Shown piece by piece: positions 56,902 through 64,000 of a stretch of DNA of 64,000 nucleotides; positions within the stretch are counted from its first letter, which is position 1, and every line of letters begins with the position of its first letter. The stretch covers positions 6,021 to 70,020 of the forward strand of contig JAISSX010000059.1 of assembly GCA_031272885.1 (NCBI GenBank). The letters are read 5' to 3'. The position numbers were made by a program, and so were the translations under genes. Under the pieces are notes generated by a model that searched no databases, was not told the origin of the DNA, and worked only from the letters and a program-made list of their open reading frames with translations. The DNA is from Bifidobacteriaceae bacterium (GTDB lineage Bacteria > Actinomycetota > Actinomycetes > Actinomycetales > WQXJ01).

Positions 56902-59900
56902 ATGAACATCGCTGTTCGTCGCCCCGTCTCCAAGTTCGTTGCCTGCGCCTCTGCCCTGGCTATGGCCGTCACCCTGGCTGGCCTGCCGGCTGCGGCCCAG
57001 GCGGTCCCAGCGCCGCCGGTCGACGCGGCCAAAGTGGCGGCCGTTCAGCAGGCCGTCACGCAGGCGGTGGACGATGTCGCGGCCCAGCTTGCGGCGTTGA
57101 CGCCCACGGCGGTGCCTCAGACCTTCACGGTGCCTGACGGCACGGGTGGCTGGCCGACGGAGAGCAGCTACGACCTGAGGGATGCTCACCCCACGTGGGT
57201 CACCGACGTCAAGAGCCAAGGCGGGTGGAATCTATGCCACACGTTCGCCCTCACAGCCATGGCTGAGTCATCCATCGCCAAGAACGGCGCCGTAACCGAA
57301 GCAACCCAACTATCGGACTTGCTAACTGCGCATGCCGCTGTGGGCTCGCAGCCGATCACCTCAAGCGACTCCGCAGAGCCCCTCGAGGTGTGGTCGCGCT
57401 GGTGGGGGCCTCGTCTGGAAACCATCGGGCCATCGGCCGCTGGCTTCGAGGAGGTACCTGACTCAGTGAGCCATGTAGCGGACTTCCACCTGCAGAGCGG
57501 CTGGCGGTTCACCTGGCCGGACAACGGGATCATTGGCAGTCAAACGCACATCAACGCCATCAAGCAGTCGATCTACCAATATGGTGCAATAGCAATAGCT
57601 CTAAATGAGCCCAGCTTGAGACATACCGGCCACATGTTCGGTGGGATTAGAGTCAACCATGATATGACGTTGATCGGCTGGGACGACAACTACCCGAAAG
57701 AGATGCTGACCTACCCCAACGGTCCCGCGCCGGCCGACGGTGCCTTCTTGGTCAAGAACAGTTGGGGCGAGAATGCGGGTGACCGCGGCTACATGTGGTA
57801 CTCGTATTATTCGGCCGACGTTGCTGTCGCGACCGGCTGGTATGGCGAGGTCGTGGCTGCCGGTGATGTATCTGGTGGCGACGGGTATGACGGCATCTAT
57901 TACTATGACACCGGCATGACGGTCAGGCGGGCCGTGGAGTCTGGTATAGGCGCCAACGTGTTTGTCTCCAGTCGCACCGAATTGCTGAAAGCTGTGCAAC
58001 TCCAGAATGCGACTGATCGTGCCGTTGACTTCGAAGTTCGCATCTACCTGGACCCATCTGCCGACATGCCCGATTCGGGGAGCCTCCAAGCGATTGGCAC
58101 TGGTGGCTCAACTGTCTTGACGGGGACCTTGCCGTACTACGGCTTGGATACCGTGAGCCTGGCGTCACCAGTGCCGTTACAACTGGGTCAGCGATTCTCG
58201 GTGGTGGTGAAGTACACCATGCAGGATGGATCGACGCCTGAATTCCCGTTTGAGCACAGCAATGGAGCTAGTGGAGCGGATGCCCAGTCTGGGCAGAGTT
58301 ACCAGAAGACAGCGGCCGGTACGTGGATTGATCTTGCGTCCGATCGCGACCCGTCGTACGGGAACCTCACGTTCAAGGCAATCACGGGACGGGCCGACCA
58401 CGACCAGGTCACATTGACGCCAATGGCCCTGCGTTTCGAACGTGGCGACACGGAGGCCACCGTTACCGTGGAAACAGGTTCGACCACTGATTCGTGGAAT
58501 GCCGTTTCCGACGCTTCGTGGTTGCACGTATCCAAGGTTGGCAACGCGTTGGTGGTGACAGCGGATCCGAATCCGTCAGGTCCGGCCCGATGGGCCAATG
58601 TGACGGTGACATCAGGCGCGGCTCGCAGTTTGTTGACTGTGCGGCAAGATGCTTTAGACGACTGCGGTGACACTATGGCCACTGCCTGCGTGCTGGACCT
58701 CAGCGCAACGTTAGTAACTACAACCGTCAACCGCTTGGAGGGCGGCGCGGACAAGGACTACTTCAGGATTGTTCCGCCGGTCAGCGGGACATGGACCTTC
58801 ACTCCCGAAGTCACAGCGGCCGACAGCGCTTCTGGGATCTACCTGCTGGACAGTGCCGGTGTAACAGTGAAGGCGGCAGGGAGTGCTCGGTTCGGCGCTT
58901 CGATCAGCGCGGACTTGACGGGAGGGGAGACGTACTACTTGTGGATCTATCACAGTTGGATGGGGGTTGGGCCACGGTCATATGAGAATGACTACACGTT
59001 GACGGCTCTGCCGCCTCCGCCCTATGATGGCGTACCCTTCTTGTTGGCCGCTCCGACACCGATTTGGACGACGGCCGAAGGATACGACAGGCGCATCTAC
59101 GTGAGCTCAAACACCAGTTGGACGATAGAGGCCGACTCTCTGCCTGACTGGATTACCCCGGACGTCTCCAGCGGTACAGGTTCGGGAAGCGTCTACTTGT
59201 CGTTTGCACCTAATGCAGGCGACACCAGAAGTGGCGAAATCACCCTTGTCACGAGCGAAGGTGGCCCACTAGCCACAACACAGGTGACAGTCCACCAAGC
59301 TGCGGTTTCGGCCCTTGACTTGGATCGTGACCAGGCTGTCCTGGCAGCCATCGAGGGTTCAGCCACCGTCCAGGTCACGACCAACACTTCGTGGGCGGTC
59401 ACGTCGCTGCCGGACTGGCTCACGGCCAGTCCGTCCTCTGGGTCGGTTAGCGGATCTGTGACATTGCAGGCATCAGCCAATGGCGGAACGGCACGAACCG
59501 GCACCGTCACGTTCTCTACCACATCGGTCGGGGCCAATGTGACGAAGACCATCACCGTTAGCCAGTCGAACAGCGGCACCGCTGCCGTGATACCAGACCC
59601 CGGGTTCAGCAATTGCCTTAGAGACAACGTAGCCTTCGTGTCTCGGGTTTCCGCTTCGGCAGTGGTACTGACTGTGGAGAACCTGGGGGCATTGAAGACA
59701 GTTTCTTGCTACGGCAGCAGTATTGCGTCAATTGTGGGGATCGGCTATCTAACCGGGGCCGAGACGATCGACCTTTCGCACAATTCGATTGGAGATCTCT
59801 CACCGCTGACGAATGCAAGCCTGCCAGGTCTTCGCCAGCTCTCCATGGGCGAAAACCCCTTCACCACGTTGCCGGATCTACCGGGTTTGACGGGTTTGGT

Positions 59901-64000: not shown

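Follow-up and report, generated by a model that had tools for sequence, protein, structure and literature searches.

Among proteases of known structure, the closest counterpart of the gene product considered here is Cwp84 of C. difficile (PDB 4ci7, 4d59; MEROPS C1A), a protein of ~800 aa in which a signal peptide and an N-terminal pro-region precede a cathepsin-L-like Gln/Cys/His domain and a second domain, PF18560. Three CWB2 repeats lie C-terminal to this head, there is no covalent anchor, and the known substrate is SlpA. The study that introduced Cwp84's lectin-like domain placed the propeptide at residues 33-91, the active site at Gln110, Cys116 and His262, and the ligands of a calcium site in the lectin-like domain at Leu339, Glu448, Lys460 and Asn487 (PMC4089489). 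Here we analyze a gene that starts at position 56902 on the forward strand of a 64,000-nucleotide stretch of a metagenome-assembled genome (MAG) labelled Bifidobacteriaceae bacterium (GenBank GCA_031272885.1, contig JAISSX010000059.1, positions 6,021 to 70,020; henceforth the window). Its product of 2,411 aa shares with Cwp84 the signal peptide, both domains of the head, the position of the repeats behind that head and the lack of a covalent anchor. The two proteins differ in that their identity is only ~20%, that BACON, pre-peptidase C-terminal (PPC), leucine-rich repeat (LRR) and immunoglobulin (Ig)-like modules stand in place of CWB2, and that no S-layer gene lies nearby in the window. In our view the protein is quite probably an exported C1A endopeptidase of the Cwp84 subfamily, likely of the zymogen type, borne on a stalk that would act as spacer and binding arm.

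The two-domain head, with its invariant Gln, Cys and His, recurs in clostridial and archaeal C1A plus lectin-like peptidases (P0005, P0006, P0008, P0014 and P0021, and the loci L001-L080), many of which are likewise giants of 1,300-2,050 aa whose stalks are long and built of repeats; however, they are only 25-33% identical to the present head, carry other stalk modules and come mostly from Clostridia, methanogens and other anaerobes. A stalk of alternating BACON and PPC-like modules is shared with the proteins P0053, P0040 and P0042, but their heads are metalloprotease-like and no LRR block or Ig_AIR9 repeats are reported for them. The Listeria internalins (InlA, InlB, InlH) combine a capped LRR block with an Ig-like inter-repeat region that resembles ours (phmmer E 2e-33 to InlA, aligned through InlA residue 458), yet in them this unit is the N-terminal receptor-binding domain of an LPXTG- or GW-anchored invasin, whereas here it is an internal module of a protease without an anchor. 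The clostridial collagenases ColG and ColH and other PPC/collagen-binding proteases likewise furnish a protease head with Ig-like spacers and a binding domain of the PPC fold; ColG and ColH are M9 metalloproteases rather than C1A enzymes, and their PPC domain is C-terminal instead of internal. Finally, BACON and BACON_2 Ig-like beta-sandwiches above the Pfam cut-offs connect the protein with BACON glycoside hydrolases of Bacteroidota and with BACON proteins of crAss-like phages, from which it departs in having 12 copies, mostly C-terminal, in a Gram-positive Sec-secreted protease.

The complete gene and its Cwp84-type head

The gene is open in frame 1 for 2,366 codons from the ATG at 56902 to the window edge at 64000. 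A database protein, MDR1825571.1 (P0001), encoded on a 117,772-bp contig, is 100% identical to the translation across all 2,366 residues and places the stop codon 45 codons past the window edge; the C-terminal 45 residues are read from this protein record alone. Look-ups of the exact P0001, purD and purA proteins, a match of the last 45 nt of the window against metagenome contigs and a scan of the genome collection yielded no DNA beyond the window edge. A Shine-Dalgarno-like sequence precedes the ATG at a short distance (Table 1), the closest in-frame stop on its 5' side is at position 56713, and neither of the two alternative starts between these points, one TTG and one GTG, has a comparable ribosome-binding site. 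In most 600-nt windows of the open reading frame (ORF), the third codon position exceeds the other two in GC (GC3), just as in the genuine genes of the window; in some Thr/Ala-rich repeat stretches GC2 comes near to or above GC1. An earlier note, made from the sequence of the window, had claimed an ORF of more than 7.1 kb with a good ribosome-binding site, and this is now confirmed as a real and complete gene. The gene is already present in public annotation, though without a description: NCBI labels the protein 'MAG: lectin like domain-containing protein [Bifidobacteriaceae bacterium]' and IMG labels it 'C1A family cysteine protease/Leucine-rich repeat (LRR) protein'. The protein is the sole member of its 90% cluster, and no close orthologue was recovered among ~15 billion proteins.

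The N-terminus, MNIAVRRPVSKFVACASALAMAVTLAGLPAAAQA followed by VP, displays by inspection the layout of a Sec-type signal peptide, as the same note had proposed, with a basic n-region (R6, R7, K11), a hydrophobic core spanning aa 12-30 and AQA-V at positions 31-34. It is the sole hydrophobic segment of the 2,411-aa protein, with hydrophobic windows only at residues 9-32, and we infer that the protease is exported. Two other routes were rejected by inspection: for lipoprotein export, Cys15 lies too near the N-terminus to follow a hydrophobic core and there is no usable lipobox, and for Tat export, RRPVSK is a poor fit to the consensus.

The head itself was recovered by Pfam as Peptidase_C1 (PF00112; 35.4 bits against a cut-off of 20.7) followed by Lectin_like (PF18560; 74.7 bits, E 1.2e-20), the latter over profile positions 1-156 of 156. 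A comparison of 17 aligned head homologues showed that: 1) Gln106, Cys112, which lies six residues downstream of it, and His253 (full-length numbering) are invariant. 2) Asn286 is part of a VKNSWGE motif, the N-S-W of which is kept by most of the 17, with Asp in two. 3) The Cys column of the family coincides with C116A in the crystallized 4ci7 construct, and Q106, C112 and H253 correspond to Gln110, Cys116 and His262 of Cwp84. The top solved relative by sequence is Cwp84 (E 1.6e-10), and a profile built from the alignment reaches it over both domains at E 2.7e-75, versus ~1e-29 for the cathepsins. The AlphaFold (AF2) model of residues 67-500, built on the same alignment (pLDDT 77.6, pTM 0.81), gave as its top three PDB matches in Foldseek Cwp84 itself (4d59/4ci7), across both domains with TM 0.72-0.77 and E 2.6e-22; the next matches, cathepsins S, K, L and V, cover the protease half only (E ~1e-11). 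The papain-like peptidase with Gln, Cys, His and Asn described in the earlier note is thus borne out by the Peptidase_C1 match, the alignment and the superposition on Cwp84, and the 'beta-rich region' noted behind it is also present but can be specified as the PF18560 domain, which places the head in the Cwp84 subfamily. Its assignment to C1A and to the Cwp84-like (C1A + PF18560) subfamily is clear.

In species-representative genomes at least 556 of 600 pattern-matched stretches were confirmed as relatives of the head. Those listed belong mostly to Lachnospiraceae, Ruminococcus, other Clostridia, methanogens and assorted anaerobes, all at no more than 35% identity, and none of the 80 loci kept (of the at least 556 confirmed) is from Actinomycetota. 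The closest head homologue, P0011, comes from another Bifidobacteriaceae MAG and is 39% identical. The same head is elsewhere fused to dockerin, Big_2, fn3, Cu-amine-oxidase-N or Flg_new modules, in several cases within proteins of 1,300-2,050 aa, and these varied fusions fit the idea of an extracellular protease head that is portable and whose targeting parts can be exchanged; among the proteins retrieved in our searches, none but the present one joins it to BACON or PPC. P0011 runs into the same Ig-like repeat directly after its lectin-like domain, and the adjoining locus (L081, 1-920) is a truncated gene with faint IG_AIR9-type Ig repeats, from which it appears that the head and the Ig_AIR9 repeats travel together in the Bifidobacteriaceae lineage.

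The repeat stalk and the C-terminus

The modules behind the head follow one another in the order that the earlier note had read from the translation, now supported by Pfam and by profiles of our own (Table 1). A self-search and a profile built from the repeats delimited exactly 12 BACON-type units in the full protein, in keeping with the previous estimate of at least 12; modules 2 and 3 score iE 7e-26 and 5e-24 with this profile. The C-terminal array, for which at least eight units had been counted, holds eight, of which the first (aa 1708-1794) is degenerate (iE 1.2e-5) and the other seven score 1e-27 to 1e-36. Over the part within the window, Pfam BACON (PF13004) reaches 295.7 bits in 10 stretches and BACON_2 (PF19190) 187.2 bits, and Tandem Repeats Finder reports a 261-nt period at 63110-63878 (2.9 copies, 77% matches). 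BACON is found mainly in Bacteroidota (87%), usually as a single N-terminal unit behind a lipoprotein signal, and is characterized as a spacer, not as a module with proven binding of carbohydrates (PMC11216935). The earlier suggestion of a surface adhesin/protease directed at host or microbial glycoproteins is treated here as a conjecture. The impression that such a protein is unusual for a high-GC actinobacterium holds only in part: 16% of BACON_2 proteins are from Actinomycetota (PMC11216935) and the closest head comes from a Bifidobacteriaceae MAG, the head family being otherwise mostly clostridial and archaeal.

In the LRR block, an N-cap is followed by ~7 LRRs, each ~22 aa long, and then by an Ig-like inter-repeat region; its presence agrees with the earlier note, although the number of repeats, counted by inspection, is about seven instead of about eight. 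Five Ig-like repeats were likewise recovered, in line with the number previously given, by matches to IG_AIR9 and Sde0182_C and by self-search. Unit 1 pairs with unit 3 and unit 2 with unit 4, which points to a two-unit duplication. Their closest solved relatives are the Ig-like domains of phage T4 Hoc (E 3.7e-7).

The segment between BACON modules 1 and 2, which had been called PPC-like, required a less direct approach. Residues 583-710 have no Pfam match at E <= 5, PF04151 included, no word-indexed homologue and no convincing sequence match in the PDB; a marginal match to an AgI/II C-terminal domain (E 0.011) was set aside as not usable. An exhaustive HMMER search of the representative library with this segment nonetheless recovered 314 relatives, in which the unit is often repeated many times in tandem. 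Two of these reach PF04151 (cut-off 25.9): P0058, which our segment matches at E 2.2e-22, at 30.1 bits over residues 52-119, inside the region aligned to the segment, and P0081 (E 3.3e-14) at 40.7 bits in two stretches, the best being 172-240. A further relative, P0038, is named 'PPC domain-containing protein' by NCBI. A single-sequence model of the segment, of moderate confidence (pLDDT 67, pTM 0.65), gave as best Foldseek matches 5sv5, the pre-peptidase C-terminal domain of a Bacillus anthracis collagenase, and the s3b collagen-binding domain of ColG (E ~1e-4, TM 0.54-0.65). Taken together, the intermediate sequences and the predicted fold support the view that aa ~583-712 constitute a divergent member of the PPC superfamily, as had been surmised.

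BACON and PPC-like modules also keep company elsewhere, as 45 of 149 relatives of the PPC-like module carry BACON units too. P0040 and P0042 show weak reprolysin-like metalloprotease matches ahead of BACON and PPC-like modules. The third such protein, P0053 (MDR1825518.1, LBR27_09395), has 1,528 aa, an HELGH zinc-protease motif, a PA14 domain and three to four BACON and PPC-like units each, arranged alternately, with no C-terminal anchor; the core of its signal peptide, TLAGLPAVAQ, is near-identical to that of the Cwp84-like protease. Its accession is 53 away from MDR1825571.1 and bears the same organism label, so that it is probably from the same MAG, and its module content makes it look like a sister 'protease on a BACON/PPC stalk'.

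The earlier note had expected an anchor, LPXTG or other, beyond the window, and had looked to the missing C-terminus for a sorting signal. Neither is there: the full protein ends in LTRTVTVTQAR, which is the end of BACON unit 12, and the last 45 residues in the protein record hold no sorting signal. A regular-expression search of the full protein found no LPXTG-like motif, a BACON module makes up the last 60 residues, the C-terminus has no hydrophobic stretch, and no match to CWB2, SLH, LysM, GW, choline-binding, T9SS tail or PEP-CTERM was obtained with Pfam or NCBIfam; for CWB2 (PF04122) this holds at E <= 1 with the whole protein and with its segments. The protein is therefore not a sortase-anchored surface protein and, lacking CWB2 repeats, falls outside the CWP family of C. 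difficile, being only a relative of the Cwp84 head. With no covalent anchor, the protease would be either released or held non-covalently.

Non-covalent retention invites comparison with Cwp84 in the strict sense, that is, with a surface-maturation protease in which the eight-BACON array would hold a wall glycopolymer as CWB2 does and the head would cleave a surface or S-layer precursor of the cell itself. Among solved structures, Cwp84 comes closest across the two head domains; it has the same polarity of an N-terminal head and C-terminal repeats, and binds the wall non-covalently (PMC4089489), and the present protein too has a long C-terminal repeat array and no covalent anchor. However, identity to Cwp84 is only ~20%, CWB2 and SLH domains are absent, and the neighbours of the gene in the window are purD and purA rather than anything S-layer-like. 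Further, the fusion of the head to many unrelated targeting modules implies that S-layer processing is not a trait of the family, and BACON is not known to bind an actinobacterial wall polymer. On balance we hold this explanation to be unlikely, and continue to favor a secreted endopeptidase on a spacer and binding stalk.

Table 1. Coordinates of the protease gene, its modules and its neighbours in the window
Feature	Position	Strand	Basis or remark
purA	53811-55097	-	beyond purD
purD	55195-56469	-	divergent from the protease gene
Shine-Dalgarno-like AAGGAG	56892..56897	+	4 nt before ATG 56902; read from the sequence
Sec-type signal peptide, aa 1-33, predicted cleavage AQA/VP	56902..57000	+	by inspection
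Putative propeptide/linker, aa ~34-85	57001..57156	+	by position, between signal peptide and papain-like domain, where Cwp84 has its propeptide
Papain-family (C1A) cysteine peptidase domain, aa ~86-330	57157..57891	+	Peptidase_C1, alignment and AF2 model
Low-GC3 island within the reading frame, codons ~100-1100 (from protease head to LRR block)	57200..60300	+	GC3 0.67-0.73
Cwp84-type lectin-like beta-sandwich, aa ~331-500	57892..58401	+	PF18560 and superposition on Cwp84
BACON-type module 1, aa 498-586	58393..58659	+	Pfam BACON 37.2 bits; own profile iE 1.7e-27
Divergent PPC-type beta-sandwich, aa ~583-712	58648..59037	+	via intermediates and fold
BACON-type modules 2 and 3, aa 707-803 and 801/813-892 (own profile 709-803 and 801-892)	59020..59577	+	Pfam BACON 72.5 bits, two stretches
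Internalin-type LRR block, aa ~895-1165	59584..60396	+	LRR_4 50.2 bits, LRR_8 29.2 bits
BACON-type module 4, aa 1162-1262 (own profile 1169-1262)	60385..60687	+	Pfam BACON 50 bits; own profile iE 1.8e-28
Five Ig-like repeats, IG_AIR9/Sde0182_C type, aa 1263-1702	60688..62007	+	IG_AIR9 39.4 bits, Sde0182_C 37 bits
C-terminal array of eight BACON-type modules, aa 1708-2411	62023..64000, last module runs 45 codons past the edge	+	own profile

An in-frame compositional island

The stretch of the gene from the protease head through the LRR block differs in composition from what lies on either side of it, where GC3 is host-like (0.83-0.90 for codons 1200-2366). GC3 averages 0.857 +/- 0.035 in the 34 remaining coding ORFs of the window, and 108 sliding 600-nt windows of these genes give 0.865 +/- 0.044, with 0.695 in the lowest single window. 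The simplest reading, which this pattern suggests, is that the island is an in-frame cassette laterally acquired from a donor of lower GC, as one chimeric join cannot make an island and expression-linked codon bias cannot vary within a gene. A lower-GC donor would also match a head family that is centred on Clostridia and archaea.

A sharp change of GC3 within an ORF, in a sequence that comes from a MAG and forms a cluster of its own with no close orthologue in ~15 billion proteins, might alternatively point to an artefact of assembly or binning, such as a chimeric join inside the repeats, or to a pseudogene, rather than to one functional gene. We regard this as very improbable because an island with host-like flanks would require two in-frame chimeric joins, while 2,411 codons are open with all modules intact and in register and the most similar repeats are only ~77% identical at the DNA level. 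This last figure also makes a collapse of repeats during assembly unlikely, and that possibility was rejected. A more far-reaching scenario starts from the same island: the 'warhead' cassette of protease, BACON, PPC and LRR would have been swapped recently and in frame onto a resident Ig/BACON stalk of host composition, in an actinobacterial lineage, possibly of the termite gut, that keeps a set of anchor-less modular proteases including P0053, with BACON arrays serving Gram-positive bacteria as an unrecognized means of non-covalent retention on the wall or on target glycans. This scenario is speculative and we think it unlikely as a whole.

Proposed mode of action, gene neighbourhood and significance

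For the favored secreted endopeptidase, we envisage that after Sec export the signal peptide would be cleaved near residue 33 and that the short N-terminal pro-segment (~34-85), which is assigned by position only, would then be removed. Its removal would expose the catalytic dyad of Cys112 and His253, assisted by Gln106 in the oxyanion hole and by Asn286, and the lectin-like beta-sandwich, which in the model packs on the protease as in Cwp84, would help to form the substrate cleft. The remaining ~1,900 residues would make up an extended spacer and multivalent arm of independently folding modules (12 BACON, five Ig-like, one PPC and one LRR block), holding the protease on, or guiding it to, a macromolecular target, with the LRR and PPC modules the likeliest specific binders and the BACON and Ig units probably spacers. 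The enzyme would most likely degrade or process extracellular or surface proteins in its habitat.

Several observations weigh against this proposal: 1) Catalytic Cys112 is followed by His instead of the usual Trp, and the Gly-Gly substrate-binding segment of many family members is replaced by SSDSAEPL. The Gly-Gly segment is also missing in some other members of the head family, and given these deviations on the one hand and these relatives on the other, full protease activity is likely but not certain. 2) The pro-segment is poorly modelled, with only its end part included at pLDDT <50, and has no sequence similarity to the propeptide of Cwp84, which is cleavable, fills the cleft and is wrapped around the lectin-like domain. 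3) BACON has no demonstrated ligand, and the 'binding arm' could be a pure spacer. 4) With no anchor, it is not evident what a spacer would keep the head apart from, unless the BACON array at the C-terminus were to fasten non-covalently to the wall. 5) Activity, export and localization are argued from the sequence and from models, and the neighbours of the gene were read on its 5' side only, within the window.

The departures of the active-site surroundings from the consensus also favor the view that the protein is primarily an adhesin, in which attachment to a surface, whether of a host, a protist or a microbe, would be the task of the LRR, Ig-like, PPC and BACON modules, with the head as an accessory or a weak catalyst. 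An internalin-type LRR block that matches InlA at E 2e-33, and the fact that four-fifths of the protein are modules typical of adhesins, fit this view as well. Nevertheless, Gln, Cys, His and Asn are all kept at invariant or near-invariant positions of the family, an adhesin would have to be fixed to the cell that makes it, for which there is no anchor, and P0053 carries the same stalk behind a different protease-type motif (HELGH), which suggests that the stalk serves proteases. An adhesin in this sense is decidedly unlikely, and a working C1A endopeptidase on its stalk is the interpretation we retain.

The gene neighbourhood offers no partner for such an enzyme: no S-layer, sortase or dedicated partner gene stands beside the protease gene within the window. 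The 432-nt divergent region between purD and the protease gene (56470-56901) has no credible Rfam match, and a consensus scan of 56300-57100 found no sigma-70-type promoter. One terminator-like hairpin lies in the divergent region, at 56604-56619 on the + strand. Beyond purD and purA lies a glycan-utilization cluster (39390-53515) that comprises a LacI-type regulator (39390-40403, +) and, on the minus strand, a 1,171-aa DUF6259 protein, DUF2961, two ABC permeases, a solute-binding protein, a 435-aa DUF4185 protein and a 1,031-aa protein with DUF4185, FIVAR and FG-GAP. DUF4185 and DUF2961 families have been reported to degrade the D-arabinan of mycobacterial arabinogalactan (PMC10115798). Judging from these families, the cluster could be a locus for the degradation of D-arabinan or a related furanoside. 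Further away, an amino-acid permease, an ornithine/putrescine-type carbamoyltransferase and a Porphyromonas-type peptidyl-arginine/agmatine deiminase are encoded side by side (26060-30811) in what looks like an agmatine deiminase pathway for energy and acid resistance. An ORF with a HipA-like C-terminal kinase domain (37995-39287; 133.6 bits) is possibly the toxin of a toxin-antitoxin pair. With regard to habitat there is an indirect lead, not confirmed for this genome: the assembly of the closest head homologue, GCA_031272565.1, falls within the accession block of lower-termite gut MAGs of PMC11707648. The endosymbiont genomes of that study have a GC much lower than this contig (PMC11707648).

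Every module of the protein belongs to a known family, and the current understanding of these families is not overturned. What is new is the architecture, with a Cwp84-type head on an anchor-less BACON/PPC/LRR/Ig stalk with 12 BACON units in a Gram-positive bacterium, together with the compositional island. If active, the enzyme would rank with the largest bacterial members of the papain family so far described and would clearly exemplify the use of a Cwp84-type head outside Firmicutes and archaea. It shows the protease with its lectin-like unit to be a portable module, able to serve on stalks of very different kinds. The island, being in frame, would offer a tidy case of the assembly of giant surface or secreted proteins by domain-level lateral transfer. 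Together with P0053, the protein suggests that BACON/PPC arrays may serve secreted proteases and not only glycoside hydrolases.

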